DNA from: Candidatus Omnitrophota bacterium
Lineage (GTDB): Bacteria; Omnitrophota; Gorgyraeia; Zapsychrales; JANLHA01
Reading direction: 5' to 3'
Length of the DNA: 64,000 bases
NCBI GenBank assembly: GCA_031423615.1
Contig: JANPFV010000055.1
Coordinates: 474-64,473 of the forward strand
This document shows, in pieces, positions 2 to 60,289 of this stretch. How positions within the stretch are numbered: position 1 is the stretch's first letter; each line of letters opens with the position of its first letter. A program made the translations under genes and the position numbers. Below the pieces are notes generated by a model. That model had not been told where the DNA came from and did no database searches. It saw only the letters and a list, made by a program, of their open reading frames with translations.

Positions 2-480
2 TATCAATTCCAGATAGCAAGAATCAAGTTATTTGAAAGCAAGTTTGGGCAAACTCCGCTGGGTGAAAGGGTCAATAGTATTGTTGAGTTCTCCGACCTG
101 CAAAATTATATCGCCGCCGATCAGCCTTATAACGCCGTACGCTTGGTCTTGGCTATTATGTCTCAGGAATCGTCGTTTAAATCTACGGCAATCAGCGGAA
201 GTGATAATGCCGACAAAGATATCGAGAAGAGAGCGCGGGGCTTGATGCAAGTTATGCCTGCGCACCCATATGCCAAAGGGATGGATTTATTTGATCCATG
301 GACCAATATTACGATCGGCGTCAGAATATTAGCGGATGCTTTACGGGATGCTAAAGGAAATGTTATTCAAGCCTTAAAATTTTATTTTGGCGGAACCGAT
401 GTGAGAAAACACGGTCACCGAACAGCCGCTTATCCCGGCGACGTTTTGGTAAAATATGCCCAACTCGACAAAATTCCGAG
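2..480 (+). other. SLT-type lytic transglycosylase (GH23-like) domain, running off the 5' edge of the window
   Basis: The motifs are 'LAIMSQESSF' (catalytic Glu-Ser), 'ARGLMQVMP' and 'ALKFYFGG', in the order typical of soluble lytic transglycosylase domains. Confidence 0.7.
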
Positions 481-6400: not shown

Positions 6401-9400
6401 ACGGGCCTGGTCTTCTCTTATGCCGCGGATCTTTTAAAGGCCAAAGATTTGAGCCAGGGTCATACGGCGCCGCGCGGTCCGCCGACGCCGTCGGAAATGC
6501 AGGATGTCCTCGCCCTTGCTGTCCGCCTTTACCGCACCGATCGTCCCAATGACTTTGATGTTAAAAAATTCGCCTATCTCTATTACACCGTTCTTCCTTC
6601 TTTGACGGCTTCGGTTGAAGTGAAGAACAATCAGAATTTACTTTTCCATCTCGCGGTAGATTTGACCAAACGTCCCTACATCGTCGCTGAAAAGATCCAG
6701 CAAGCCTTGGTCAATGTTTTGGCGGACCAGCGGTTTAATGCTCTCTTGGCCCACGAAAGCAAGCCGGATGAACTGATCGCCGCGTTTGTGGATTTGGCTT
6801 ACCGTCATAACGATGCGGTCAACCATATCAATGACATCCTCGAGATGAAGGTTTATTTCGAATCGTTATTGGCCAAGGACAAAAAGATCGACTTGGTCAG
6901 CGCCTTACCCTACCTCTATTATTGGGCCCGCGTGAAAGAAATTTTTGCCAAAGAAAATGTGGACATTAAAGAACTGTTCAATAAATTCCCGATCGGCCAG
7001 TTAAATGAGAAACCTTACTTATTGACCTGGGACATCCTCAAGCAATATCATCGTCGCACCCTTTCCGTGTCCAAGGAAAAGACCGCGGAAATCCAGAATG
7101 TGAGAGAATTTTTGGCCGCGCAAGGTTTACCCATCGGCACGATTGACGTTCTGACTATTGAACCGGGCACCCAGCCGTTTGTCGCGTCGGCGTTGAATAA
7201 AGACACGATCATTATCAACCGTCGTCTTGTCACCGGCACTCCGGAACAAGTTTACGCGGCGGTCAAAGATTTGTACGAAAAAACCAATGATCAAGACATC
7301 CGCAATCATGTAGCACCTTTATTGAAAATGTCCCGGGAAGAAATTTTCCGTACGATCTTGATCCACGAAGCGGCCACGCTCGTGGGCCTTGATCACGATA
7401 AAAATGTCAAATTACAAAATGATTATGAACAATGGCTGAAGAACAAACCCGCTCCTCAGGTAAAGAGCGTTAGAGAACTTCTTTCCGTCGCGTCGGTTGC
7501 GACCAGCCCTGCGATGTCCGTCGCCCAGAACGATGCTCATTATGAACAAAGAGATTTTGGATTTACCGGCAATGATATCCAGGCGCTCGCCGCTTTGGCC
7601 ATGAAACCGGCGTCTGCCACCGCGGCCGCTGAACCCCCGGTTTTCAAGGCAGGAAGTCTAGAGGACCAACTGATCCATGAAGCTTCCTTCCTCGAGCTGT
7701 TTAATGTCAGGAGTTTTGACGAATGGAACGCTACGTTTAGAAACAATGTTCCCGCCCAGGATTTTGTGAGCTGGACAGCTTACAGCGTTTTGAAACTTCT
7801 TAAAGCTGATGTAGCTACTTATATTACTGCTTTGGATGAAGTCAAGAGACTCAATGCGCGTCTGTATGGATCTGCGGAAGGAGAGGCGTTTAAAATTCTT
7901 TACAATGGTTTAAGTCCGGTCAGCAAACTCAGCTGGCAGAATGAAGAGCTGATGATCCAATATTTTGGCATTGTCGGTGATAATGACGCCACTTTAGGCG
8001 GCGTGGAAAGATATCTCGGATTGAAAACCGGATGGGTTTATACCGGCCTCGATAGTTTTGTTTCTTCTCTTATTAAGCCTGTGGAATTACATCGGCAAAT
8101 TGTGGCAAACCCAGAAGCCATGGAAGCTGTTCGTTTGATTTGGAACCAAATCGGACTTATTTCTGCGGCTAATATCAGTGATTATTACCGTACTCTGCTC
8201 TTTTTTGTAACCGGGGACACTGAGCAGTATACAAACGCGGCGGACAGTGCAGATACCTTTGTTCATGCGGCGCGTTATTTGACCGCCTTACGCGCAACGG
8301 CAGGGGCCATTTATTCTTTAAATACTTTTGCCGGTATTGCGCTTAATCCTGCGGGGGATTTGACACCGGATCAGAGAAAAGCCTTGTTTGGCACTTTACG
8401 CGATAAGGACGGGAATAAAACCGGGGCGTATAAGGATGCAACGGCAACGGCTGAGGCTTTAGTTGCTTTATTGAATTACCGCAATGCCTTAATGCAAGAG
8501 CCGAAGGCCGATGACGATAAGAGCGCGGTAGAGATATTGAATCTTTTGACGGGAATCAATTTTGCCAAGACCGAAAAGTATACGGCTGCCGAGTTAGACG
8601 AGTTGTTTACAACCTTGTTTAACGATCCCAAGGACACGACGAAGAAAGAGCATACGGTTGCCTACGATGAACCGGGCAAAGCGGCCAAGACCTTGGTTAA
8701 GTTGTGGAATTACCGTTACGCTTTAATGCAAGAGCCGAAGGCCGATGACGATAAGAGCGCGGTAGAGATATTGAATCTTTTGACGGGAATCAACTTTGCC
8801 AAGACCGAAAAGTATACGGCTGCCGAGTTAGACGAGTTATTTACAACCTTGTTTAACGATCCAAAGGACACGACGAAGAAAGAGCAAACGGTTGCCTACG
8901 ATGAACCGGGCAAAGCAGCAAAGACCTTGGTTAAGTTGTGGAATTACCGCAATGCTTTAATGCAGGCGAAAAAGGCCGATGACGGCAAGAGCGCGGTCGA
9001 GATATTAAATCTTTTGACAGGAAAAAACTTTGCCAAGGAAAAGTATTCAGCCGAAGAGTTGGAGGGTCTGTTTGAGACCTTGTTTAACGATCCTAATGAC
9101 AAGAAGAAGACCGATCCACATACCGATGCCTACAACGATCCGGCGGAAGCAGCCAAGACCTTGGTTAAGTTGTGGAATTACCGCAATGCTTTAATGCAGG
9201 CGAAAAAGGCCGATGACGGCAAGAGCGCGGTCGAGATATTAAATCTTTTGACGGGAATCAACTTTGCCAAGACCGAGAAGTATACGGCTGCCGAGTTAGA
9301 TGAGTTGTTTACAACCTTGTTTAACGATCCAAAGGACACGACGAAGAAGGAACATACAGTCGCCTACGATGATCCTAAAAAAGCCGCTGAAAGCTTGGTC

Positions 9401-39400: not shown

Positions 39401-42400
39401 AACGGTGAATTAGACGGTTTTAAAAAACGCCTGGCAGAAATTAATAATTCGGATAAAGATACGCAAACGGATTTGTGGCTGAGGTTCCCGGTAAAATCTG
39501 ACGATGAAAATAACGATTACGATTCAATGTTGCAAGCTATAAAAGAATCGTTAAGAGATTCTGCATGGCATGCACGCGAAACTTTATTGTCGGAAATCGA
39601 AGCTTTAGAGGCTATGCCCGCCGGCGAAGATTTGGCAACGCAAAGAGAATTGCTCAATGACCTTTGGAAAAAAGCTGAAGCCATTGTGGTTTGGGAGGTT
39701 GATGGCGAGGAGTATGATTTTAGTTTATCGCTGTTTTCTAAATTGAAAGTCCTTGAGGAACGCATCGCGGTTTCGGAAAAACAATTGCGGGCCCGCTTGG
39801 CCAAAGGCTGGTTGGGCACCTTGCTTTATGACGGCATCATTGAGCGGACTTTAGAAAAACGCGTGGATGAATTGTTGCGGCATGAAAGCGATGAAGTTAA
39901 GCTGATGTATTTTTTGGCGTATGCTTTTGCAGATAGAATGCCGCAAAGTTTATTGAATATGGAACATATTGCCCGACCGATGGCGAGGGCGATTCTCTTT
40001 CAGCCGTATGGCAATAGAGTCGCTCCTCGGCATTGGAAATGGCGGGAAGTCGCCGCTCTTTTTCCGTCGCCCATTACCGGTGAAATAGCTAATGCTATTT
40101 CCAAACGTGTTGTGGAACTTTCCAAGGTTGATACGAAAACAATTGCCGCGCAAATTTCTCAAGAATTCGCTTCCCCCCCCGTTTCCAGCTGCGCGATAGA
40201 AAGTAGGGACAGACCCTACTTTTCTAATATTCAAACGACCAGCGGGCGTATTTCCGGAGAATTCAATCCGCCGTCGGTTTCCAGCTCCGCATTGGGTGCA
40301 TTATTGGCTAAAGCGCAAGCGATGGAACATGATCGATTATTGCATTTGTTGAGGCAAACCTTTCCTCAGGCGGCAGAGGAGCTTTTGGCGAGAGGACGTT
40401 TAGAAGAAAAGAATTGGACTTCTTTGGTGGCTATAAATGCACGGTTGTATTCATCTTTTGCGGACATAACGGAAGAAATTTTAAGGCTACACAGAATGGG
40501 CATTAAAAAAGTATGGTTGATTGGGATTTTTGCGGAAAGTTTGATCAGTGAAAAGTGCGGGCAGGCCAATTATGACCTTCGGTTAAATTATGGGGACCAA
40601 GAAGTTTATTTATATTTTGATCGGAATAATGACGGATCGATCATTTCCATCGTGAGGGAAACAAAAAGGGGAAGTAAAGATTTGAGCGCAGCGGCATTTG
40701 CCATCCCCGAGCATGAGCCCAGCAGCAAGTTAGGCGGCAGAGAAGAATTAAGAAAATTATTCCAGCGTACGGCTGGCATGGATATTTATGTGGATTTTGT
40801 TCCGCACAGTACATCGGTCGATTCAGCGTGGCTTCGTGATGAAAACATAATGACGGGCGAGGGATACTGGTATGTGTATAAAGATTTATCATCAGAAGAC
40901 CAACAAGCTCTTCACACTTGGGAAGAGGGACGTTATTTATCCGTCGAAAATGCAGGGAAACCCGAGACATGGATTCCTGCCCAAGAGCAATTTATTAGAA
41001 TAAGCGAGAAAATTCTTTCAGAAAATACTGGATACTTCCTCCACCGATCTACAAAATTGAATAAATGGATTCTGATTGTTTTAAGCCGAGATGCGACCAT
41101 GAAGCCGCGCGGGGAATATTTCAATGACATCCAGGTATTAATTGATTTGAGTAATTCTCAAGCGCGGCATGAATCGACCAAAGATGCAGTAGGTTTGGCC
41201 GAGCTTGGGGCCCGCGGTTTTAGGATGGATTCGGCGCAAACAGGTGTTGTCGGAAAGAAGGGCGAAGAAAGAGGGTTTATCGCAACGTGGAGTGATCATC
41301 AAATTACTAATCCTTCCTTAGGTAATAATCAGCAAGAACTCTATGAAGAGATGATTCCTGCTGTCCGTCTAGTGACACCTGATTTTGAATTCTTTGGCGA
41401 AGCCTTTTGGTTTTTTGATGTCTTAGAGCAGAGCGGATTCGACAATTTATTGCAGATATGGGTCTATATTTTAATGTCGCGGAAAAGAGACATTCCCCAG
41501 TTACGTAATTATCTCCAAAAGACGAGTTTGGATGAGCATAACCGACGTATGCACGGATCGATAAGTCATGATGATTCACCCAATTATCGATTTGAGCGGT
41601 TGGCGGATATATTGGCTGTAACGAAAAGATTTTTAACTCAAACGGTGATAACGGTGACAATTCCGGGGAGGGTTCTTTTTCATGATGAGCAATTAGGGTA
41701 TGGCTATTTGGTTGCCGCCACTAATCGCAGAATGGTGATCGATGATGTTGAGCATAAAGATGTCCGAAAGGCCTTTGAAGACATGGTGATCTTGGCCGAA
41801 GACCCGGTTTTAAGACGGGGAGAAATCCATGTTTTCCGCAATAATCATCCGCAAGTCTTGGCTTTTGCAAGATATATTCCGGGACGAGCGATAATAGTCA
41901 TAAGTTATCACGGTGCTTTTATTTCTCGAGCCAAGATTGAGAAGCTGGCTGAGCAATATGAATTAGAGTGGTCATCGGTGGCGCTATTCTTTGAACACGT
42001 TCAGTCGGGAGATGATCACCTGGTATTAAAGAGAGAATTTGATGAAATTATTCAACAAAGTCCTTTGCCAGAGGAGTTCAAGTCAGATCTGACAAGAGAA
42101 CTGCTTAAGGGACTGCAAGGGCAATCCGCTAGGGACTTGCTGGACTTGCGTGACGTTGCGCAGCAGATGGGAATTAGAAATGAGGATAATGCATTTTACG
42201 TATTGCTTGATCGATTAAACGGCGCTGTATTTTTAAGGACAGGTTCGGAATTAGTCAATCAGGGTTTATATGTTTCCTTGCTAGCTAATGAAAGTCATGT
42301 ATTTATGATTGAGCAGGTAAGGGGCGACAATAAACAGATCCGTAAAATTCTTAGAAAAGCGAAGGGGAAAGAATTATCAATTGCAAATATTTATCGTTTG

Positions 42401-45400
42401 GTTAACGACTTTGGCGTAAATGTATCATTTGTACCTACGGGCTTGCTTGCGAAAGCAGAAATTATCAGATTGCTTATTCAGCAAGGGGGAAATGTACAGG
42501 CTGTCTTGGCAATAATGGGAAACAATGAATCCGAAATCGATGTTGACGAAAGCCGTTCCTCATCCTCGATAGAAAGTAGGGACAGACCCTACTTTTCTAT
42601 TGGCAATGTCAGAATAAATATCCGAGGTCCCTATTTATCACCAGAGATCACGTCTCGTGTTACTTCCAGCGGTGACTATTCCTCTTCGGCAGTCCAAGCG
42701 ACAATTGTTGCTTTTATCTGGACTGTCCTCGTCTATGGTTTTACCAACTGGCTTTACCGACTGGCAAAGGCTCGCTTGCAAGAGGCTAGAGATATCCTTT
42801 ATGGTTTAAATGGGAAATACATGTTAAATGAACTTGAGAAACGAGGACTTTTAAACGAATTCAACGAATCATGGTTGAGCTATCAAGCATCAGAACTTCT
42901 CTTAGCAGACATTGTTTATGAGGAAACACATTTATATGATGGCTATTTGTTCATGTCAAAACAAATCGCTTTTTATTTTGTAGGATTCTTTGCGTTTTTA
43001 GCATTTCTCACCGCATTGAATAATCCAACGGGCTTGGCGTATTTTATAGCTGTCCCCAGCTGGTTTATTTCTCTTATGGCTTTGATCCATATTCCTCGTC
43101 ATGCTTATGAAAAAGGAGTGCGGTCACTGCAGAGAATTGCTGAATACAACGCCCGTCGGACCGTTTGGAATGATGAAAATACAATTGATGCAGTAAGCAA
43201 TCCTGATCAATCAGCCTCCTCGTCGCTGTATCTGATAGAAGATTCGTATTCCAAAATTATTCCAACATCTCAAAGGAATCTTAGAAATGCTGGTCATAAG
43301 ACAGCGTATTTTCTGACGCGTTTTTCTACCGTCGATAAAAGCCAGCAATGGGGTTCAGGTTCCGCTTCCAGCGCGGTGCATGAGAATTACACTGCTCTGC
43401 AAATTGAAAAAAGAAGGATTGATTGGGCTATTGCTGTGGCAGAGGCAAAAATAGCCCTTGCTCAACAGAAATTTGTGGAAGTGGATGAAAGTTTTCCGGA
43501 AGGAGAATTTCAAACATTGCGATACCATGCTTTTAAACTGAGCCTTTTGCTTGAGCACTTTAACAGGAGGATCCGCAAAAATCAAATGGGAGGGGCATTA
43601 ATGTGGGCTGGTCTTATTGCAGCCATATTTAATAGGAGAAATCCCAGTGCTCGACTTGACGCCGTGATTGTGGGGTTGATAGGGATGGCGTTAGAGGCTT
43701 TGGATTGGTTTGGGCAATGGTTGGAAGAATCCGTTCTTAAAATGGTACAACCCCAGCGGGAACTTGGTTGGGGGTACCGTCAACTTTATGCTTTGGAAAA
43801 AATGCGATTAGATGCGGTCGGCGATTTGGGTGAGTTACGCTCGGAAGCCGAAACCATTGAGAATAGAATTTTAAAGTATAAGAACAAACTCATAAATTGG
43901 CTGACCGCTCAAAATGAAATCAGTGAGATAAAGGTTTACCTTGCGTCATTTGTGGCTACTGGGGCGATATATTATCGAACACAACAGAATCAAAAAATTA
44001 TTATTGGACTGTACTTACGAGCGAGCATGGCCGCATTAAACAGTATTATTACAATGCAACGCAGTGGTGAAAATAATAATGAATTTGTTCAAACCGTTGA
44101 CACGTTCCTTAAACGGTCAATGGCGGGAATCATTGATCAGGATGACCAAATCGATGGTTTACAATTGATTTTAGTGGTTAATGAGGTCTACACTGAATTG
44201 CTCACACCTTTATCGCAATTACAGGTTCTTGCCCAAGCTGGACAGATTTCTGAGTTTGTTGTCAATGACCACGGCATCGATCTTTTTGCAACTTTGGCTC
44301 GTCATGGAATCACAACCAACGACATGACTTCTGACCGATCGTCCTCGTCTTTAGACGAAATAGTGACAGGCACTAATTTTTCTGGTTTTTCTTCGTCTAA
44401 ATCTCCCGCGGCCTCGTTGTCGGTTAAAAAATCTGTGCGATGGAACAAGGTTGTCAAAAGTAGGGACAGACCCTACTTTTCTGACAAACAAGATTCGCCA
44501 GAGGATGGAGAAAAAACGGTTTTGAATCCGGTCCGTTCTTCTTCGTCGATTGAACAAGGGAAAAAGCGTTCGGTCATTATCCCCACCTTTGTAAGTTCTT
44601 ACAAGCGGGTTTGGCGTTTATTAACATCCATCGGTGTTCCGGATTCTATACGGCCGAAAATAATTTTGATTCCCTTGGCTTTTGTTGCCTTGGTTTTCTT
44701 TGCGGTCGTAGGATTGTTCGGCAAGATTACAGATTTATGTTTTATCAAACAATTTTCAGGTGGGATAACGGATGAACAGCATCAAGGGAATACGGAAAGA
44801 AAATTTGCTCAGTCTATTTTGGCGTTTTGGCAATTTCTTACTCAACCGCTCACCGGAATCATGAAACAGGAATTAAATCTGCGCCTGCTTCCCGTCGTCG
44901 CCGCGTTATTCTTGGTCTCCGGCGGGTATTCTTTTCTCCCGATCTTTTTATTTTTGGCGGCGGGGCTTCTTTTGATAGGCTTTAGCAGAATTAAAATGGA
45001 TACAGCACGGGAGCTAACTACGCTCTTGCCGGTTATTATCGCGGTCAATAATTTGGCTGGATTGGTTCTTTTTGCCGTCCTGTCATTATTTTTGACCCAC
45101 CCTATCATTTTATCTGTGGGTCTAGGTGTGGCTTGGGTAGGTCTTACGGGATTGCATATTTTTATTTTAGTAAACCGGCAGAAATTCCTCGATACGTTAA
45201 AAAAGTTTGACCGTCAGTATGCCAATAGTAATTTACAACATCTCAGTACCGTTAAAATTGTCGAAGGTCAGGGCCCGGTCATTATTGCGGTGCATGGGAT
45301 TGGCCATAATGCAGTTATCGACTGGATGGTTTTGCGGCTTTTATTTCCCGGGCGGCCGATAGTCGTTCCTGTCAACTGGCGTTCCGATAATACGATGAAA

Positions 45401-48400
45401 GAATTTTTGAGCATGAATTTAGAAGAACAAGAGCGAAATCTTTTGATAAAACTAATCGGTGAAAAAGATAAAGCGATGCGCGCTTTGCTCTTTTTGGCTT
45501 GGATGATTGGTTACTTTGAGAGAAAAAGCGGCCAACCCGTTATGATGCTGACCTATTCTCTTGGCGGACGCAGGCTCTTGTCGCTTTTTAGTGACAAGGA
45601 TTTTGCTAGAACCGTGAAGGAAAAGAGTTATCCACAAAAATGGCTTAGGCTGGCGGAAAGTATCAAACGAGAAGTCATCACCGCAATTCCCGTCGGAAGA
45701 GTAGGATCATCACGATTGCTTCATTCTGTCCAGCTTATGGGCATGGTCATTGTAGCAAATTTGTTGGAAGCCACTTTAATCATTATTCGTATGCTCATTA
45801 TGGCCAATTGGATGATTAGGATTTTTGAAGCCGGCCGTCTTCGTCATGAGACCTACGATAGCATTGTGAAATATTCAACCAAGCAGAGTTTGCGGGTCCA
45901 GACGTTATGGTTGTTAAGGAAAATAAGTTTGAGCCCGCGAAGAATTAAAAAACTTAAACAAATGATGAATGGGATAGCGCTTCATATTGTCGTTGGAGAA
46001 ACCGATCACGTCACGCCCCTGGACACGAATCGTGTTTTTGCTGAAAGAATCGGTGCTACTTTCTCGGTCATTCCTCACGCGCATCATAAGGGTGTGATTT
46101 ATTCGGTCCAGTATTTAAAAGTTATTAGACAGCTGCTCAGTGATGAGGAGCAAGGCCCGGTTGATATTGCAGAATTGCTGAAAGGTTTGGTTATAGAAAA
46201 TGTGACCTTTGCCCAACAAGGTCAACAGTACAACACGGAATCCTCAATGTCGGATGCCATGGCTGGCGTCGTAACCACGCTTAATGAGTTTGCCGGTTCT
46301 TATGTCGAAGCCCTTTGGCCAAAGAGTTTGACGCTGAAAGTTACCGAATCTTCTTTTTTAACTCATGACCAATTCGTTTATTTGGAAAACAGCCAGACCG
46401 CGATTATTCATGCTGATTTCTTTAAACTGGCGCCTAAAATGCGAAAGGGTATTTTGTACGGTGTGTTCGTCGGACAAATCGCTCGGCAAGTCGAGAATGA
46501 TTTTCAAATGAGAGTAGCTACCGACCGGTTATATGACGCCATTGATGAGCAGGAAAACGGAAAATCAAATTGGGATTCTCACTCGGCCTTTTTCGCTTTG
46601 AAAAGCGAGTTGAAAGAATTAAAAGACCGCATATGGACAAGGGTCCACCCGGTTCTTTTGCCGCCGGTGGTAAAAGTGCAGCGGGAATATGATATGGATC
46701 AATATATCCGCCATCACCCGCCTTCTCGTCTTTCCAAAAATCATAACACCGACGTCTCTTCCTCGGCCCTAGAAAGTAGGGACAGACCCTACTTTTTGCA
46801 GAAAGTAGTGGCAGGCACTAATTTTTTTAGCTCTTCTTCTTCGATTTATTCTTGCGCTTCTTCATCGGTGGAAGAACCTATGCAGTGGAATAATTTTGTG
46901 GGTAAAGAAGCCATTTCCCACGCATTAAGCGAAGTGACCCAGCCGTTAAGTCTGGAGGACCATTTATTGAAAACCGTACCGCAAGATTATCAGCGAAGCC
47001 GACAGAGATATGCCAGGAGTCATCAGAATTCTGATCAAGGATATAATAGTGCGCTAATTAAGGAGTTTTTGGATCTTTATGAAATCATGATAGGACATCC
47101 AGGGGGATGGACGATAGAGCAGTTATGGAATTTGTTTTCCCATATTCAAAAAGCCCACCCGCGTTATATAAATTCTAGAGAATTCCTGGTTGAGATGTTT
47201 GTATTTTTTCAGAAACAAAAATATCCTTTTGAAAGACAAGGTCCCTTGTGGTCATTGACCGGGCCCGTGCAGTTACAGCTCAATATTATATTACCTCCTC
47301 GGATCGTGAATGGCGCAGGCTTGCGCAAATTTCGTCTGGACGTCAAATTAGGAATAGAGGATGCGGCAAAACGTTTAGGTACTTCCGTAGTTAGTTTGAA
47401 AAAGGCCGAGAACCAAAAAGGGCCGGTGCGATTTAATGATCTTTCAATGTGGCCGCGAATAGTTGAGCAGTATGGGTACGACAAGATGGCGGTGTGGTTA
47501 TTAATCGCTCAGTTGCCCTACGAAATTGCTATAAGACGCAGTACGCTGGGGCAAAGATTTGCGTTGGTGGGATTGGCAAACGGAAAAACGATGGAGCAAT
47601 ATGCAGAAATACTGGGTATCCATAGAACCGAGTTACATTTAATCATTGCCGGTAAGAAATTCCCTCCTCCGGAGGTTTTAGACCGCATGAACTCCTATTT
47701 TGGTATCTCTGATCAAGATCTTTTAGCCCCAACGGAAGGAATCGTTGTTGAGGGATGGCCTTTGAACAAAGCGCTTTTGGAGATGGGAAGCAAGATTAAG
47801 ATTTTCTTATACCCCAGTCTTTATCAAAGGATAGCGACCGCCCGATCCAAAGATATTTGGGTGATGTTGACAGGGCATAAAAAGGATGAGGCTTTGGCAA
47901 TGACCTTACCGCACCGACGACTAGAGCTTTGGCGTCTTGTTGTGGGTCTTACTGTCCTAGAATTGGCTGCTCAGATGCAAATAAATAACGATACATATTA
48001 TTCCCATATTAGTGGTGAGATAAATATTCCAGAAATACAAAAGATAAAATATGAAGAAATTTTTGCTCCCGCGACAAGAGCAGAACTCTTTGGTAACGAA
48101 AGTCCAACCGTAAAAAGTAGGGACAGACCCTACTTTTCTAATAATTCTGAAGTTTCTTCTTCGACGATTAGTTCCGCATTATTTATAATAAACCAGATTA
48201 GGGCGTTGATCCTTATCAAAGCAATAAGAGCTGTTTTCGCTTCTCCGCTTCTTTATGCAATTTCCCTTCTGTGGCCAATGTTACCCTTCTGGTATTTACT
48301 TGCGGGAGTGTTCCTGTTGTTAATGATTCATGGGTTTTACCGAAAGCACACCACACATTTTTTCCGTATCAGAGAATTCTTCGTCGAAGTGTTGATTGGG

Positions 48401-51400
48401 CGTTTGATAAGGAGCATAAAGGAAAGCCGTCAACAGAGAATTATAATTCATTCCGCCGGGGCCGCTGATTTTAAAGAAGCGGTTTCTATCGCAATCGCTA
48501 TTTTAGAGGATTATAAAAACCATCCGGGAACATGGAACGGCGTTGATCCGCAGAACAGTGTCGTGATTTATGCAACAGAAGGTAGTGAAAGATTATTTGC
48601 GAAAGGTTCGACTCTTGTATACAGCATTGATGAAGTTTGGTACAACGGGCTTACCGGTGTCGAGCGGTACGATTATTTTGATCGGCTTGAGCGGGATGGG
48701 AAAGAATATTATATTGCCAAGCCTGTTATTCAAGAGATGATTCGCCCTATCAGGGCAGATTTAGAAAATGTTTCCCTTCTTGAATCTGTCGATATCGTCT
48801 TGTTGCTTCATGCAATGCATTTGAATACACCGGCCAAGATAAAAAAAATCGTCGGCAATCTAAAAAGCTCATTGAATGATCAGGGTGTTTTTATTGTGCG
48901 GCATGGTCATTGGGGCATTCCTTATAGAAATATCTTAAAAGAAATCTTTCACGACGTTAAGGCCAAAACTTTATTCCACCCACGCGTGCATTATGAAAAT
49001 TCCCCCTATGACAGCGTAAATTTATTTGGTTGGGAAGGTATTTGGCTAATCCCGCTAATTCTGATATTAAAATTAGTTTTGAAAGAGGCCTCTTATCAAA
49101 AGTTAGTTGATCTGAGCCCGAAGGGCATTGAACCGTTTGAAATCTATTCTTACCGCGAAACGGATACGGAAAGGAAAAGTAGGGACAGACCCTACTTATC
49201 TAAGAATTCTGAAGTTTCTTCTTCGACGATTAATGACGGGGCAAAGGAAAAAGTAGGGTCTGTCCCTACTTATTTGGCGGTATTTTCAAATGAAAGTGAG
49301 GGAAATAGCTTTGGCGATTTAGGCGTCGTCGTTGTTCGTTCCTCCGAGCTTGTTGCTGATAGAGCGGGTAATACTTCAAGCTGGTATTATTCGCAGGTCA
49401 TTCAACATTTCATTGCGAGCGAGACGGGAGTATCACTGCCATCTCCTGTTATTAGATATAATCCAATTGAAAAATTATTGGGGTATTTAGATGAAAATGC
49501 CGCAGGTCGCAATCGTAAAGGCAACGCTGACGGTGTCATTTCAACAGAAGTTATTTTTTATAAGTGTGAGAATCAGCGTGGCGAAGCCACGTATTCATTA
49601 AAAGCAACGATTCGCCAAGAGGGACTGAAATCGCCAGATAGAAATTGGGAGATGATAAAAGCAAATGAGGTAGGATTCAATCAGCTTGGTGCACTATTTC
49701 TTATTAGAATATTGGGTCAAATGCGATTTCAAGAAACTCATTATTTAGGAGAAGGTCAGGGTTTACAGTCGTTGGGTTTTCTTATGAAAGAAACAACCGT
49801 TCGGTTAGAGTATGAACGAATGCGAAATGGCATATTTGAAACGAGAGTGTTCATCGACCTTGATCCTCTATTAGCAAAATATGCTAATAATAGAATTTCT
49901 TCCTCCGCCTCAATAACTACCCGACATCCCGATTTATCTGCCTCGTCGGCGATTTCATTGCTCCATTTTGCTGCTACGGATTCGCATCCTTTATTCGGCA
50001 TTTGGGCGAAAGGGTTAAGCGCCCGCGATGAACTGATCTTCGCGGCCCGTCAATCAGGGTTTTTAGGACACTATATTCAAGACCGCCTCGAGCATTCTTT
50101 CAGGGGCCACATCGGAAATATTTATCAGCCGCCGCAAGCTGACTATCTTGTGATGTTGAATCTTTATTGGGAAGGCGTTCGAGCGAATGTGACGCAGCAT
50201 ACCTATGGTGACGCAGTGTATCTCTGGCGTGAATCCGCAGCGGGATATGAGTTTTTGATGTTGGATTACGGGACGGGCGTTATTAATCGCGATGGCAAGC
50301 CGGTTGAGGATATCAGTCAAATTTTCAATTTAAAGTCATACCGCCAGGGCGGGTATGCCCCGGACGGTGTTGAGCGTGGCGGCGGCCAGGGTCTGGGGAC
50401 TAAACATGTCTCTGATTATACATATTTGACACGATTAATTTCAGTCAATGCCGGACGAGTCAGGATCGTTGAGAAAGCTGTACCGGGTTCTACGCTATTC
50501 TCACGGATCGCAACGAAAACGATCCAGACAAACTTTGACTTGACCGAGCTGGGGATTGACCGTAAGAAAGTGGCTGGCGTTATCGTCCAGGGATTTGTTC
50601 CTATTGAAGAAAAATTTTATAGTGGGAGATTCTCCCCGGTTACAAAAGACAGCATTTTGGCGGCCGTTCATACAGAGAGCGCCCTGCCGCGAATAAGGGG
50701 TTCCTGGCAAATTCCTTGGGCATCAGGTTTAGACCGGTTGAAAGCTGGTGATGCCATCACGATTATTTATTATCACCCAGCTGAGAAACAGCAAGTCGTG
50801 GAGATGAATGTTACATTGAAGTCATTGCCGTTTTGGGAGGGCGGCCCGATGTTCTCTATCGAAGGCGGACGCATTTTGCACGATAGTAAGCTCACGTATG
50901 TAAGAGCGCCCAAAGGCGAAAGAGAATTAAAGGGCGGCTTCGATTTTCTTAACGCCATCGCTGCTTTAGATATTAAAAGAGGGGATCAGGTCATTATTCG
51001 GTACAATGATACTATTATGATCGACGAAAAAGTGGAATTAACCGGTACTATCCGTGCGGTTCCGGCGCCGGAGAACCAGGGCGTTTTTGAAATTGAACAC
51101 CATGGCGGCGTATTGGACATCGGGCCAACTCATATTAAAGAATTTGTTAATGTCGGGAAGACACCGACAGGCATTCATTTATCCGCCGGTTCTTCTTTAA
51201 TCACCCCAAAGAAAGTAGGGACTGTCCCTACTTACTACAGGGCTAGTTCCGGACTAACAAAAGCGCAGAGGGAGCGGATTGAAGTTAATTATCAAATTAC
51301 TTTACGGAGAATTCCGATATTTGGTATCGAGTGGGCGGGGGATTTTAAGCGTGATTTTGCTGGTGAGGATCCGGAAATCACCATAGCTATTTTAAGGAGA

Positions 51401-54400
51401 TTGATCGCTCTGGGCGATCCAGCGATTAATAAAGGTGTCGCGTGGATCCTGCAAGATCCATACTATTTTGGACATAATGTTTTAGCGACGATTGATGAAA
51501 AGTACGAGGCGGGAGGGGACATCAACCGGTGGCTCGGCGAAAGACACAATATAGGTATTAATGCTGCAGTTCTTGATTTGGTGCGATATGTATTCTTGAC
51601 GGAAACTCCCGGTGCAGCCAAACACGCCCGCGCCAAGTTTATTTTGGAGGCCCAATATGGTTTTAATAAAATTGCGGGGATAGGCGGCCTGCCCGCATTA
51701 CTAAGAAATCCGCGCAAACTTTACGGCGATGTGTCCGATATCACCGCTATTATGCCAAAAGCCCGCCGAGTCTTGGACGAAGACCTAGGTCTTAATTCGA
51801 CGCAGATTGTTTCACTTCCGACCCAATATGGTTTTGAAATCTATGTCGTTTATCTTGGCGCACAACCCACGGGCAGTTTCAAAGTTTGGATTGCTTACGG
51901 GATTATTAAAGCGCTCCGGGACAACCCGAATATTGATACGATCATCCTCGCTACGACGGGAAATCAAGGTATTGCCAATTCCTATATCGGCCAGATATTA
52001 AGTCAAAAGCTTGGGCGCCCAATCAAGGTCATCATTTATACCCCCTACGACACACCGTCGGTCAAGATTGACGCCATGGAATCTTATGATGCAGATGTTC
52101 GCAGGGATCCTGACGTTAAAAATTATGACCAGTCGGTCACCGTTGCGAAAAGAGCATATGAAGAAATAAAAGACCATGCTTATTTTGTCGATCATGCGGG
52201 GGCGGAGGCGCTGATCTCCTATGCCGCTCTCGGGGACACGATCCTTGATACCTTTGAATCAATGACCGGCAATTTGCAGGATACCGCGATAATCGGTCAA
52301 ATAGGCGCGGGAGGGCTTTTAAGCGGGGCTGCGGCGGCAGCGAAGTTCCGTAGTCTCACGACACTCGTCTTCGGCACACAAAGCCTTTTGACCCGTCACG
52401 CTTATGAATCGTTTGTGTGGGGAGAGATCAGAAAATATGTTTATGATAATCAAGCCCTGATTCGCTCAACCGGCATTGACACCAAAGAATTAGAAAAGCT
52501 CGCTTTTGAAGTTTTACGGAAAACATTAGACGGCATGTTCCTCGTTGATGAGAACAACATCGATGCGGCGATCAGGCTGTACCATCGCAGCGGAATCATC
52601 GCCGAACCTGCCGCCGTCCTCCCGTATTTGGCATTTGTAGTATCCCGTCGAATTTTGCAGAGACTCGGTGTTAAGAAAGTGCTTTTGTTGTCGAGCGGGA
52701 GCAATATTTCACCCGCAGATCATGCGCGTGTCATTGCTTCTGAAATAAATAAAATAAATAGGGACGGCGCCTATTTATCCCATGTATCCGCGGCTGTTTC
52801 CTCCTCATCGGCGGTTGAACGCAATGACGTTCTGACGAAGTTGACGGCGCGAGCAGTGGAGGTTGCCAGACAATCTACGGTTTCCAGGTTATCAGGACTG
52901 CCAAAAGTCGGGGCATTGGTTGTTGATTGTGATGGGAATATCGTCGGCGAAGGGTATAACAAAGAGTTTGGCGGCGATTTGCATGCAGAGCATGCGGCGA
53001 TACTCAGCGTTGTTCACAATTATTTACGAACACGACATGATGATTCAGACAGAAAAATGGTGTCCATATTAGCGATTTCAATTGTGATCTGGCCATACTT
53101 AAATCGGCGCGAACGTGGATATGAAAGAAACTTTGAAGATTTAACGCGTCGTTTCCTCCAGTTAGCAGATCAGACGGAGTTGAGTTTTAATGATCTCTCC
53201 TTAATCGTTACAATGGCTCCTTGTACTCGATGCTCGGCTCTGATCGGTAAACTTGGGTTCAGGTCAGTCTTCTATCCGGAGAATTCTTATCCTTCGCAAC
53301 GGGGTCTTAGTATTCTTGAAAAAAGTGGTGTAACCACTTTTGGTCTTCCTGTTGAAATTGATCAGGATCTTCAGGGTTGGGCGTTTAGATTATTTAATCG
53401 CTTTCCGTGGATATACAAAACGAGCCATAAGTTACTTCGTCAGTTGCGGGGTAATAAAGAAGGAAATGAAGATCGTAGGAAAAGTAGGGACAGACCCTAC
53501 TTTCCTGACAATCCCGATGTTTCGTCGTCGGCCCTTGTTCTTCCTGCAACCTTCCTAGCAGAAGGGTTAAAAGTAGGGTCTGTCCCTACTTTTTCGTTTG
53601 TGGCGGAAGTGATCGGTTCTTTGGGAGCTATCCCGCCAGGGGCAACAGTTCAATATAATGGAATGAATAATAGCGGAAATCAGTTTGGATTATTGCCGAT
53701 AAAACTTAGTGCGCAAGGACAGGCGTTCTTGGGGACTTTTGCGAAGAATTCCGGGATCCCCGAACAGGCTAAACTTTTAATTTTTAAAGCGGGAGACGAT
53801 AATTATAATGGGCGCTTTAAAGACATGGGGCCATTAGCTGTTGGATTGATCTTTGATGTTGCGGCACAAAGTCAAAAAGGTTATTTTGACTTTTCATTCT
53901 TATGGCAGATATCAGGAACACATCCAGAATTTTATTTTAAAAACGCCAAAGAAACTTTAAAGAGCAATAGACTTGATAATTGGATTGCATTTCAAATTGA
54001 CAAAAAACCAGCAGTCATTCGTCCATTTGATGGCCAACTGAAAAACAGTGGCTATTTCTTAGAGTTGCTAATTATTTCACCGCTCAGGGATCAAGCTCAT
54101 TCTTATTCTGGTTTTTATAATTTGGAAGTGGAGATGGAAAGCCTGGAAGTTTTTCCTTTTAATGCTCCTGCCAGTGTTGATATGCAAACAGTTATATACA
54201 ACAACAGAAGATTATTGAAGTCCAAGCGCGTTCATGTCATTGGCTCCGGCTTGGGAATCGATGTTGTGATGGCTTTAAAGCATGGGGCCCGGGAAGTCAG
54301 TTATTTTGACATTAATCCGGTTCATCAGCTTATAACAGGCTGGAATGCTTTGTATGCAGAACACAATGGCGAGTTTTCTTTAGCAGGGCGTTCTCGTTCT

Positions 54401-55711: not shown

Positions 55712-55717
55712 AGATCG

Positions 55718-60087: not shown

Positions 60088-60289
60088 TGAAATATGCCTA
60101 TTTATAACATAAACCAGAATTTTTCCAATAGAAAAAATCCTGATAATCCTCGGCCGCTATAAAATGCAGCGTTTTATAAAAATTGAAACAAACCGGAATA
60201 TTTTCAACAAAAAGTCTTCGCTGTCTTTGTATAAATAATTTTAACCTTTGTTGCAGTGGCATTTCATCGATGTTATAATCCAAAACATC
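60088..60289. promoter_or_regulatory. AT-rich divergent intergenic region between mutS (- strand) and the downstream + strand gene, presumed to hold promoters for both
   Basis: It is a 200-nt AT-rich spacer between divergently oriented genes, with TATAAT-like hexamers (tataat at 60277-60282, and tatatatat at 60062-60070 for the - strand). No -35/-10 pair is firmly assigned. Confidence 0.3.

Follow-up and report, generated by a model that had tools for sequence, protein, structure and literature searches.

Here we show that positions 2 to 55,711 of the window (the whole stretch of DNA analysed, 64,000 nt of a metagenome contig) form one uninterrupted, real coding frame whose product is a mosaic of separate modules. 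This region is likely the 3' 55.7 kb of a genuine Omnitrophota multi-enzyme ('Archaeovorin-like') giant gene, encoding a membrane-threaded module mosaic with palindromes in its linkers. The giant gene itself is one more example of a documented but functionally opaque class. The features are listed in Table 1.

No stop codon interrupted the frame over positions 2-55711 and the frame was open to the 5' edge of the window, in agreement with the sequence-only reading, which had described a single very long, 5'-truncated coding sequence beside five stop-rich frames. All 48 stops of this frame in the window lie after position 55711, while the other five frames contained 742-1,466 stops each, with longest open stretches of 114-884 aa. 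At a GC content of 45.5%, stops make up ~5.7% of random codons and ~1,050 would be expected in 18,569 codons; since none was found, a chance origin of the frame is excluded. The codon-position bias was uniform along the full length (GC1 ~0.52, GC2 ~0.36 and codon-position-1 purine ~0.6-0.67 in each 3-kb slice), and protein-family matches in this frame spanned aa 38 to aa 17,758. It is extremely improbable, and close to refuted, that the long frame arose as an assembly or polishing artefact, through a chimeric contig or stops removed by error. The contig comes from a metagenome and the dispersed 26-nt repeats described below could in principle mislead an assembler; however, the ~1,050 stops would all need to be missing, the codon-position bias shows no change along the ORF, and the frame is kept by all 11 repeat copies. 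Moreover, in independent assemblies of related genomes this locus also carried a giant gene whose C-terminus is homologous, and GT48 modules were found in stop-free frames covering whole 22-kb loci in dozens of genomes.

The host was assigned to Omnitrophota on the evidence of MutS and GT48 relatives and of the mutS-mutL-giant gene synteny, which bears out a placement previously flagged as inference. The closest relatives of MutS shared 80-82% identity, and all named relatives at 59-82% identity were Omnitrophota/Omnitrophica. The GT48 modules closest to that of the giant gene came from Omnitrophota MAG fragments, and the mutS-mutL-giant gene layout was conserved in related genomes, with synteny to the Omnitrophota MAGs GCA_020632535.1 and GCA_020849375.1. 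A 980-aa ORF without Pfam match also neighbours the giant gene. Beside mutL on a 451-kb contig, a positional orthologue was called at 29,688 aa (~89 kb), and a second positional orthologue at no fewer than 11,205 aa. Because the former has 29,688 aa, about a third of the protein (~11,000 N-terminal residues) is probably missing here, and the window probably holds roughly the last 60% of the gene. An identical MutS is encoded on a public contig of 65,478 bp, so that no more than 1,478 bp of the source contig lie outside the window; therefore, the true start was almost certainly not assembled.

With 55,710 nt and 18,569 aa, the ORF passes both length thresholds used for giant ORFs of Omnitrophota, >20 kb (Seymour 2023, PMC10066038) and at least 10,000 aa (Nielsen & Lui 2026, bioRxiv 10.64898/2026.06.07.730766). 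The set of West-Roberts 2023 was defined by >90,000 bp; here 55.7 kb of a 5'-truncated gene is present, and the orthologue has ~89 kb. An earlier description of the gene as among the largest known was overstated: for Omnitrophota, 5,761 proteins with 10,000 aa or more have been catalogued, the longest having 147,155 aa (bioRxiv 10.64898/2026.06.07.730766), and a protein of 85,804 aa was described in 2023 (bioRxiv 10.1101/2023.11.21.568195).

Table 1. Positions of the giant ORF, its modules and palindromes, and the neighbouring genes in the window.
Feature	Position	Strand	Basis and details
Giant ORF	2..55711	+	18,569 sense codons + stop 55709-55711; 5' end cut by window edge
SLT lytic transglycosylase domain, aa 38-133	113..400	+	Pfam PF01464, E 2e-15 to 4e-16
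Tandem repeat, 234 nt (78 aa)	8417..9399	+	~4 copies, 70-86% identity
Lone strongly hydrophobic segment, aa 5375-5393	16124..16180	+	Kyte-Doolittle; K/R richer on C-terminal side
FKS1-like membrane-integrated glucan synthase module, aa ~5715-6850	17144..20551	+	GT48 catalytic domain aa 6092-6580
RelA/SpoT-homologue-like module, aa 9256-10093	27767..30280	+	Pfam RelA_SpoT, E 2e-5, below cut-off
TPR repeats, aa ~12815-12871	38444..38614	+	Pfam TPR_1/2/8, E ~1e-5, just under cut-offs; PDB consensus TPR proteins
Palindrome copy 1 (GAAAGTAGGGACAGACCCTACTTTTC)	40199..40224	+	Codon phase 0, peptide SRDRPYF
Palindrome copy 2	42572..42597	+	
Cluster of hydrophobic, TM-like segments, aa ~14230-15268	42689..45805	+	Kyte-Doolittle
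Palindrome copy 3	44456..44481	+	
Palindrome copy 4	46772..46797	+	
XRE-type helix-turn-helix domain, aa 15849-15906	47546..47719	+	Pfam HTH_31, E 5e-9; HTH_3, E 2e-7
Palindrome copy 5	48113..48138	+	
CheR-type SAM methyltransferase domain, aa 16117-16299	48350..48898	+	Pfam PF01739, E 7e-9; TM-like segments on both sides
Palindrome copies 6 and 7, inverted pair	49175..49274	+	Perfect 21-bp stem, -47.8 kcal/mol, z -5.4
Palindrome copy 8, variant	51211..51236	-	One mismatch to 20-nt core; peptide KVGTVPTY
PLP-dependent enzyme, serine racemase / threonine dehydratase type, aa 17266-17566	51797..52699	+	Pfam PF00291, E 2e-34
Cytidine/dCMP deaminase zinc-binding domain, aa 17613-17758	52838..53275	+	Pfam PF00383, E 1e-11; HAE and PCxxC motifs
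Palindrome copies 9 and 10, inverted pair	53480..53594	+	Perfect 26-bp stem, -61.4 kcal/mol, z -6.3
Two-domain module with class I SAM methyltransferase fold, aa ~17862-18262	53585..54787	+	
Palindrome copy 11	54800..54825	+	
Conserved C-terminal tail, last ~85-100 aa	55412..55708	+	Ends in hydrophobic stretch
mutL	55718..57520	-	Pfam; synteny; convergent with giant gene, 6 nt between the two stop codons
mutS	57502..60087	-	Pfam; used for taxonomic placement

The giant protein was scanned with Pfam in 1,000-aa slices, and matches were listed at E <= 0.05. Six domain types scored above their cut-offs with one copy each, RelA_SpoT and TPR fell just under theirs, and ~85% of the protein had no recognisable domain. 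The SLT, GT48, PLP, deaminase, methyltransferase, HTH and multiple TM assignments made from sequence alone were upheld by Pfam, Foldseek and hydrophobicity scans, but two others were not. For the proposed GH13 module, no Alpha-amylase match was found at E <= 0.05 in any slice and the region I, II and IV patterns were absent, and for the 'hydrolase' module the only match was a sub-threshold alpha/beta-hydrolase (E 0.005, 17 bits against a cut-off of 25.8). The SLT domain (57-59 bits against a cut-off of 21.3) contained both 'MSQESSF', with the E-S motif of the catalytic glutamate, and 'GLMQV', and its PDB match was the lytic domain of a phage tape-measure protein; with a family match and a catalytic glutamate, it can be classed as a putative GH23 / SLT lytic transglycosylase. 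The PLP enzyme matched serine racemase in the PDB (E 2e-21) and carried the 'SFK' lysine motif. Homologues of the second methyltransferase module were 400-460 aa long with a GxGxG motif in the alignment, and its AlphaFold2 model (pLDDT 72) matched RlmL/PrmA/METTL-type methyltransferases in Foldseek. The RelA/SpoT-like module, with a synthetase-like core at ~aa 9354-9610, was kept in the giant genes of relatives (tblastn to L045 and L052 at E 1e-80), and a profile built with these two matched GTP pyrophosphokinases of the PDB at E 1.6e-14. Internal repeats of the ORF were few. Sub-cut-off matches to DncV_C, DUF1697 and PDDEXK_7 lay inside the 78-aa tandem repeat and were treated as spurious. 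When aa 3124-4054 were aligned with L011 and used as a profile, no PDB match was obtained.

The GT48 family, a target of echinocandin drugs, is usually regarded as eukaryotic. In the giant protein, PF02364 was matched at E 1e-66 (226 bits, far above the cut-off of 37.2) and FKS1 chains of the PDB at E 6e-33, and the module had the order of TM helices, GT48 catalytic domain and TM helices. When its AlphaFold2 model (pLDDT 75, pTM 0.81) was searched with Foldseek, the top 13 matches were FKS1/FKS2 (E 4e-28; TM-score 0.57, query-normalised), and BcsA, chitin synthases and hyaluronan synthases came next. The model thus has the predicted cellulose-synthase-like fold, a GT-A domain between two transmembrane bundles, and it matched FKS1 over ~1,135 aligned columns. 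Mutation has shown 15 active-site residues to be needed in yeast Fks1 (PMC10499315); of these, 11 were conserved in the module (E851, K1082, D1102, N1104, E1155, H1195, E1221, D1222, K1246, R1248 and K1261), among them the D1102/N1104, E1221/D1222 and K1246/R1248 motifs that it shares with fungal Fks1 and plant callose synthase (GT48; PDB 7XE4, 8JZN, 9WZV). Four positions were changed (D1080 to F, K1172 to A, E1173 to D and N1220 to S), so that D1080 and K1172 of Fks1 are not kept; D1080L inactivates yeast Fks1 in vivo (PMC10499315). Identity to FKS1 was 17-19% in structural alignments, and to the plant enzymes ~30% by BLAST. Unlike Fks1, the GT48 domain is here a module within a bacterial giant protein, is without the regulatory regions found at both termini of the fungal enzyme and contains no cysteine, whereas two extracellular disulfide bonds were reported to be crucial for the activity of yeast Fks1 (PMC10499315). 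Related modules were found at 42 prokaryotic loci, mostly labelled Omnitrophota with few Endomicrobia and nearly all within giant ORFs, and they clustered apart from the eukaryotic GT48 enzymes. This recurrence of GT48 across giant-ORF loci was not found in the giant-gene papers cited here.

TM-like segments of the giant protein were detected by a Kyte-Doolittle scan (21 segments reached a score of 1.8, and 40 a score of 1.5) and formed four clusters, of which that at aa ~14230-15268 was partly conserved with the L043 orthologue (aa 14894-15523). Cysteine made up 0.10% of the residues, with none in the first 7,534. In giant ORFs from 28 loci, 157,000 residues in all, it was near-absent. The GT48 catalytic domain and the RelA/SpoT-like, HTH, CheR, PLP-enzyme and zinc-deaminase modules are of kinds that are normally cytoplasmic; the protein is better pictured as membrane-threaded with parts on both sides. 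According to the Kyte-Doolittle scan and the positive-inside rule, applied to a protein whose ~11,000 N-terminal residues are probably missing, the segment at aa 5375-5393 may be an anchor placing the preceding 5,374 residues outside the cytoplasm. The product would then be threaded through the cytoplasmic membrane by the four clusters of transmembrane segments, with the cysteine-free N-terminal part and its lytic transglycosylase on the outside, where it could cut peptidoglycan, its own or that of a host. In the complete FKS1-like module, the catalytic domain would face the cytoplasm and the channel would lie within the membrane; the module may build a beta-glucan from a sugar nucleotide, most likely UDP-glucose, and push it outward. 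The RelA/SpoT-like and HTH modules, both methyltransferases, the PLP enzyme and the deaminase would be tethered on the cytoplasmic side. The single-chain translation, the membrane topology and all enzymatic activities described here are deduced from the sequence, and a surface 'multitool' or predation role is likewise putative.

The giant protein resembles the Archaeovorin class, whose type example is the 39,678-aa protein of Velamenicoccus archaeovorus (bioRxiv 10.1101/2023.11.21.568195; bioRxiv 10.64898/2026.06.07.730766; PMC10066038), in belonging to the same phylum, in having tens of thousands of residues and many transmembrane segments, and in being mostly unannotated and poorly conserved between genomes. 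Many Pfam families are present with none dominating by copy number, as in the multi-enzyme metabolic cluster class of Nielsen & Lui 2026. The domain set described for Archaeovorin-type proteins comprises glycosyltransferases, methyltransferases, glycoside hydrolases, peptidases and NUDIX; here a glycosyltransferase, two methyltransferases, SLT and TPR were found. Unlike in the Archaeovorin class, the glycosyltransferase is GT48 (FKS/callose-synthase type) rather than the GT5 and GT1 stressed in those papers, and the 18,569 aa at hand yielded no C39, NUDIX or HEAT, no peptidase domain and no glycoside hydrolase beyond SLT. A divergent SecA DEAD / preprotein-binding domain occurs in most full-length Archaeovorin-type members (bioRxiv 10.1101/2023.11.21.568195), and C39 peptidase domains are likewise reported for most full-length giants, whereas no SecA match at E <= 0.05 was obtained in any 1,000-aa slice of the 18,569 aa. 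The missing N-terminal third could hold a SecA-like domain.

Compared with its relatives, the giant protein aligned only in patches (24-45% identity), while MutS was 81-82% identical; 37% of it had any match among 54 giant-ORF loci, and module order differed at L054. The C-terminal tail (43-45% identity) was common to every mutL-adjacent giant gene examined. From these alignments, the giant gene appears to gain, lose and reorder modules far faster than its housekeeping neighbours evolve.

A 26-nt palindrome (consensus RAAAGTAGGGACAGACCCTACTTTTC) was found at 11 sites in the last quarter of the giant gene, between modules and all within 15 kb, against 0 in shuffles. The cores were exact and the flanks unrelated, the spacing was 1.0-2.4 kb, and the modules bracketed were the HTH, the CheR, the PLP enzyme with the deaminase, and the second methyltransferase. 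All 11 copies lie in frame inside the ORF, with one codon phase shared by the eight '+' copies (8/8) and another by the three reversed copies (3/3). The '+' phase is one of two stop-free phases, and agreement of 8/8 would occur in ~1 in 128 cases if the phase were free. Since the reversed copies encode KVGSVPT, unlike the SRDRPYF of the '+' copies, the palindrome is conserved as DNA and not as peptide; a protein-level cause of the core was rejected for this reason and because all copies use identical codons. The '+' peptide is part of a recurring linker, (K)SRDRPYF followed by [V/R]SSSx[I/L], which occurs 8-10 times, and the neighbouring [V/R]SSSx[I/L] motif varied at synonymous sites. Together with the shared '+' phase, this variation hints at more than passive selfish insertion. 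The palindrome-encoded peptide was predicted to be disordered. The identical 26-mer was also found between genes in the metagenome contigs L048 and L050. A viral origin of the hairpin was not supported, with no exact match in viral contigs, nor was the hairpin a general feature of giant genes, as none of 54 other loci had a dispersed 15-mer present at least 3 times. The modules bounded by the element were not marked as foreign by GC3. Neither the palindromes nor cysteine depletion are mentioned in the main text of bioRxiv 10.1101/2023.11.21.568195 and bioRxiv 10.64898/2026.06.07.730766.

On the simplest reading, the palindromes would belong to a REP/MITE-like repeat family for which linkers are the only tolerated sites and a stop-free, cysteine-free phase the only tolerated one. 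As in REP, REPIN and MITE elements, a short palindrome is present in many copies, singly and as inverted pairs, but the location here is not extragenic. Rickettsia palindromic elements (RPEs; PMC10969869) are likewise many-copy short palindromes lying in frame in coding sequence and translated, and the occurrence of the same 26-mer between genes is also in line with RPE-type repeats. However, the core is 26 nt (inverted pairs ~100-115 nt) against ~100-150 bp for RPEs, 11 copies are concentrated in one gene whereas RPEs are scattered over unrelated genes, the phase is strictly uniform and no associated transposase is known; no sequence relationship is implied.

Alternatively, the palindromes might be in-frame cassette recombination sites, at which a recombinase excises, inserts or reorders modules with the frame kept, which we consider quite unlikely. 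Like integron attC sites and the sfx sites of shufflons, which remodel a surface protein at its C-terminus, the palindromes are short, imperfect and separate promoterless, module-sized segments of 1-2.4 kb. All 11 sites fall within the two stretches that have no equivalent in the L043 orthologue, three edges of the conserved blocks are 48-74 aa from a palindrome, and the PLP module occurs elsewhere in a different module order; the bracketing of single modules, the exact cores with unrelated flanks and the uniform phase also fit. By contrast, selfish insertions surviving only in linkers predict the same placement, and the degenerate counterpart in the L043 orthologue at the position aligned with copy 8 suggests that the linker is old and not a cassette joint of recent origin. 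Unlike in integrons and shufflons, a single reading frame runs through the entire array, the palindromes are mostly in direct and not inverted orientation, and no rearrangement was observed. The two marks of an integron cassette array were missing: the consensus contains no GTTRRRY core in direct reading, and no intI, other integrase or Rci-type recombinase gene was found nearby, in the 8 kb outside the ORF. None of the 54 giant-ORF loci had a comparable dispersed repeat; therefore, cassettes cannot be the general mechanism of module shuffling. If such a system existed, the fixed codon phase and the disordered linker peptide would keep the giant frame intact, and it would be a dedicated route of growth and diversification, an integron or shufflon inside one ORF that drives module turnover. 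It is very unlikely that the hairpins act in RNA instead, as processing, pause or weak terminator sites. By cleaving the very long mRNA or pacing its translation, such sites could tune the amounts of downstream modules or allow their stepwise folding and insertion. The inverted pairs are stable, with perfect stems whose length would suffice for RNase III, and several copies resemble terminators in their score, having a T run after the stem. The nucleotide sequence is what is conserved, with a fixed position relative to the modules, and the predicted disorder of the encoded peptide means that the protein would tolerate the hairpin sequence. On the other hand, single copies have 8-10-bp stems that fold only marginally better than shuffles (z -1.6 to -2.0), no Rfam family matched the hairpins at E <= 1, and translating ribosomes would melt such stems; since the palindromes occur only in the last quarter of the gene and the giant genes of relatives lack them, they are not generally required for giant-gene expression. 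Unlikely, too, is the idea of one frame without one working protein, either a polyprotein cleaved into enzymes or a product partially translated from internal starts. The modules are self-contained and have stand-alone homologues (~320-aa PLP enzymes and the 400-460-aa methyltransferases), the recurring linker could be a cleavage site, and C39 or S8 peptidase domains have been proposed to cleave giant proteins (West-Roberts et al., bioRxiv 10.1101/2023.11.21.568195). Against this, the 18,569 aa available contain no detected peptidase domain, and in the core of the linker motif it is the DNA, not the peptide, that is conserved. If true, giant size would be a packaging or regulatory device and not a single molecular machine.

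For a membrane-threaded multi-enzyme giant protein of Omnitrophota, the GT48 module would provide a concrete candidate activity, the export of beta-glucan, as judged from family match and predicted structure. The scarcity of cysteine constrains ideas on where and how giant proteins fold, and the fixed-phase palindromes, placed between modules and in segments that differ from the orthologue, are a lead on module gain and loss. The prokaryotic GT48 modules also point to a prokaryotic sister group for this family.

The observation of a single very long coding frame, open at the first base of the window, was confirmed. Reading from position 2, the first stop was found at 55709-55711 after 18,569 sense codons. 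At a GC content of 45.5%, random stops are expected at about 5.7% of codons, or about 1,050 over 18,569 codons, so chance cannot explain the open frame. The remaining five frames stop normally, as the sequence-only reading had stated, with 742-1,466 stops each and longest open stretches of 114-884 aa. GC1/GC2/GC3 and the position-1 purine excess were steady in every 3-kb slice of the ORF, and recognisable domains were found in frame from residue 38 to residue 17,758. Since an identical MutS lies on a public 65,478-bp contig, no more than 1,478 bp of the source contig fall outside the window, and the start of the giant gene was very probably not assembled. By analogy with a positional orthologue of 29,688 aa, the complete protein probably has close to 30,000 aa. 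The gene belongs to an already documented class of giant genes and adds one member to it; the interpretation given in the sequence-only reading was partly supported overall, and its description as among the largest genes known was overstated.

Features of the giant protein and its locus (orthologue coordinates refer to the C-terminal 2,658 aa of the 29,688-aa protein)
Feature	Protein (aa)	Window (nt)	Strand	Basis or remark
SLT lytic transglycosylase	38-133		+	Pfam; E-S motif present
Tandem repeat, 78 aa, about 4 copies				self-comparison
Lone strongly hydrophobic segment	5375-5393			hydrophobicity scan
FKS1-like glucan-synthase module	~5715-6850	17144-20551	+	
RelA/SpoT-homologue-like module	9256-10093			weak as single sequence; profile match
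Shared block 1	11,863-12,617			orthologue 717-1413
TPR repeats	near 12,815			
Second large cluster of hydrophobic segments	~14,230-15,270			
Shared block 2	14,894-15,523			orthologue 1701-2358
XRE-type HTH	15,849-15,906			Pfam
CheR-type methyltransferase	16,117-16,299			Pfam
PLP enzyme, serine-racemase/threonine-dehydratase type	17,266-17,566			SFK lysine present
Zinc cytidine deaminase	17,613-17,758			HAE and PCxxC present
Second SAM methyltransferase	~17,862-18,262			recognised solely via homologues and predicted structure
Shared block 3	18,316-18,566			orthologue 2401-2652
C-terminal tail, about 85 aa		55412-55708	+	alignment with L043, L045, L051, L052 and L053 (loci with mutL-adjacent giant genes)
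mutL		55718-57520	minus	downstream of giant gene
mutS		57502-60087	minus	downstream, beyond mutL
980-aa ORF		60248-63190	+	no Pfam match

The proposed placement in Omnitrophota was borne out by MutS and by the shared locus layout. Relatives of the window MutS were found at 80-82% identity, and all named matches down to 59% were labelled Candidatus Omnitrophota/Omnitrophica. On contig JACKFJ010000002.1 (451,540 bp) of GCA_020632535.1, the order is a homologue of the 980-aa ORF, mutS, mutL and a convergent giant gene, which was called at 29,688 aa. The corresponding gene of GCA_964474085.1 is truncated at a contig end but still spans at least 11,205 aa, and the same layout was present in further relatives. 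The last 85-100 residues of the mutL-adjacent giant genes are 43-45% identical with a clear common pattern (ISYxKIxY..LVIRxWKLRP..LGxRxRxWL...NxxSxPExDY....LLVN..G). Because locus order and this tail are common to the relatives, the window gene is a positional orthologue. The tail is the only part kept in every mutL-adjacent giant gene examined and ends in a hydrophobic stretch; it may be an anchor or targeting signal. In GCA_964574575.1, the mutL-adjacent gene (L052, 5565-13787) was called at just 2,687 aa with a separate call upstream; the giant gene may truly be split there, or the assembly may be wrong or contain a false frameshift. The stop codons of the giant gene and the convergent mutL are only 6 nt apart (55709-55720), leaving no room for an intergenic terminator. 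The 980-aa ORF is low in cysteine (0.2%), carries a 54-nt tandem repeat at 61077-61214 and is kept beside mutS in relatives with 44-68% identity over parts; the relatives also have a Plug/TonB-dependent receptor, a DUF6580 protein, a weak YfhO-like protein and a TPR protein in this neighbourhood.

Most of the domains named in the sequence-only reading (SLT, GT48, PLP, deaminase, methyltransferase, HTH and multi-TM) were recovered. GH13 was not supported, with no Pfam match in slices and no signature motifs in the window protein, and the "hydrolase" corresponds to an alpha/beta-hydrolase Pfam match below the cut-off. For the RelA/SpoT-like module, a three-sequence profile including the orthologous stretches of L045 and L052 reached E 1.6e-14. 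No domain could be assigned to about 85% of the chain, and mostly unannotated sequence is also reported for this class of giant proteins (PMC10066038; bioRxiv 10.1101/2023.11.21.568195). A second set of diverged internal repeats at 26751-27540 (about 57-63 nt per unit, with a higher-order repeat of 420 nt) matches a duplicated segment around aa 8,897-9,140.

The glucan-synthase module scored 226 bits against the Pfam Glucan_synthase cut-off of 37.2, and its catalytic domain matched yeast FKS1 chains at E 6e-33. An AlphaFold2 model of aa 5700-6860, built from 56 sequences, had pTM 0.81 and pLDDT 75, rising above 90 in the catalytic core. When the model was used for structural search, the best 13 matches were all Fks1/Fks2 (E 4e-28, about 1,135 aligned columns), followed by bacterial cellulose synthase, chitin synthases and hyaluronan synthases. 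Of the 15 residues assigned by Zhao et al. to the active site or interface helices of Fks1 (PMC10499315), 11 are identical in the window module, including D1102/N1104, E1221/D1222 and K1246/R1248; D1080, K1172, E1173 and N1220 are changed. The nearest sequence relatives were Omnitrophota MAG fragments (30-46% identity), then plant and algal callose synthases (about 30%). A scan with one genome per species gave the module in 42 loci, labelled mostly Omnitrophota, with some Planctomycetales and a few Endomicrobia. In nearly all of them the frame is open over the whole fetched locus (up to 22 kb), so these modules also sit in giant ORFs. The unit conserved among them corresponds to the tabulated module, with mostly unrelated flanks, and in a rough neighbour-joining tree the prokaryotic modules branched together as a deep clade distinct from eukaryotic callose/glucan synthases. 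One GT48 protein match, P0012, has the label Njordarchaeales (Asgard) and also contains radical-SAM domains. Among the papers that could be searched, none mentions GT48 together with Omnitrophota.

By sequence comparison, the giant gene is a fast-changing mosaic. MutS is 81-82% identical to its relatives, whereas the giant proteins align in patches only, with 24-45% identity. Between the shared blocks the window protein has about 2,280 (blocks 1-2) and 2,790 (blocks 2-3) extra residues. The PLP module has its nearest relatives in other long proteins (best 63% identity), with stand-alone enzymes next at about 30%; on contig L054 it comes immediately after a segment homologous to window residues 11,390-11,695, an order different from that of the window. 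Only 37% of the window protein had any match in the 54 gathered loci.

A short peptide repeated four times in the protein self-comparison was the first sign of a repeated DNA element, an exact 20-26-nt sequence, RAAAGTAGGGACAGACCCTACTTTTC, which forms a hairpin with an 8-9 bp stem and a five-base loop. Its 11 sites (40,199-54,825) all lie inside the ORF, with none elsewhere in the window or in shuffled sequence. Eight copies have one orientation, all in codon phase 0 (peptide SRDRPYF), and three are reversed, all in one other phase (KVG(S/T)VPT), one of these with a single mismatch to the 20-nt core. As the two orientations give different peptides and the codons are identical throughout, conservation acts on the nucleic acid and not on the protein. 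The third phase contains TAG, and the leftover phase of the reversed copies would encode cysteine. Two sites are inverted pairs of about 100 and 115 nt, folding with perfect stems of 21 and 26 bp. The elements are spaced 1.0-2.4 kb apart between modules; all 11 lie inside the two extra stretches between the shared blocks, and three of the block edges have an element 48-74 residues away. In the second methyltransferase model, 33 residues from an element pair have pLDDT 25-30, indicating that the peptide would be a disordered linker. At the sole site with an orthologue alignment across the element, a degenerate version, AAAGTAGGC ... TCATCGTCGATT, stands in the orthologue, so at least that linker may be old. 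A motif, [V/R]SSSx[I/L], was counted ten times where 0.3 would be expected, in 40277-54860 (aa 13,427-18,285), directly before palindromes or 13-35 residues after them. Its serine codons vary at synonymous sites, including AGC versus TCN, which suggests protein-level selection, unlike the palindrome core.

The palindrome had no match in Rfam or viral contigs and was absent from the 54 other loci, orthologous gene ends included. Four JGI metagenome contigs have one copy apiece, and in two of them the 26-mer is identical and intergenic. On two different metagenome contigs, L047 (2512-2532) and L048 (1975-1995), it lies just upstream of an orthologous 184-aa gene and may be a conserved regulatory or terminator hairpin in those genomes. 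The simplest reading is that the palindromes are a REP/MITE-like repeat family whose copies persist solely in linkers and in phases that do no harm; in its effect this resembles the in-frame Rickettsia palindromic elements (PMC10969869). The uniform codon phase and the position at module joints keep two less likely readings in play, a role in recombination and one at the RNA level. Neither of the two giant-gene preprints (bioRxiv 10.1101/2023.11.21.568195; bioRxiv 10.64898/2026.06.07.730766) mentions palindromes or hairpins.

The GT domain of Fks1 lies in the cytosol, after six transmembrane helices (PMC10499315). The window module has five or six hydrophobic segments before the catalytic domain and several after, and K/R is commoner on the C-terminal side of the lone segment at aa 5375. 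In a self-consistent reading, the 5,374 residues before this anchor, with SLT first and no cysteine, would lie outside the cytoplasm and the GT48 catalytic domain would face it. The RelA/SpoT-like, HTH, CheR, PLP, deaminase and second methyltransferase modules would draw on cytoplasmic cofactors or substrates and be anchored at the inner face, with further membrane clusters between them. The whole protein would then combine an external wall-cutting, possibly adhesive arm, a polysaccharide-exporting pore and tethered cytoplasmic enzymes. This putative topology fits the inner-membrane-anchored architectures of Nielsen & Lui (bioRxiv 10.64898/2026.06.07.730766) better than a purely surface-exposed "multitool". 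A host-cell target has been proposed for Velamenicoccus archaeovorus, the type example of multi-enzyme giant proteins.

Cysteine is strongly depleted in the window protein: it makes up 19 of the 18,569 residues (0.10%), and the first 7,534 are free of it. The deaminase domain accounts for three of the 19, two of which belong to the PCxxC zinc motif. The neighbouring MutS and MutL contain 0.9-1.0% cysteine, and giant open frames from 28 other loci (157,462 residues) average 0.19%. The word "cysteine" is absent from the main text of both preprints. This giant gene is of interest for its FKS-like module and its cysteine signature, and most of all for the palindromes that sit in frame at its module joints.
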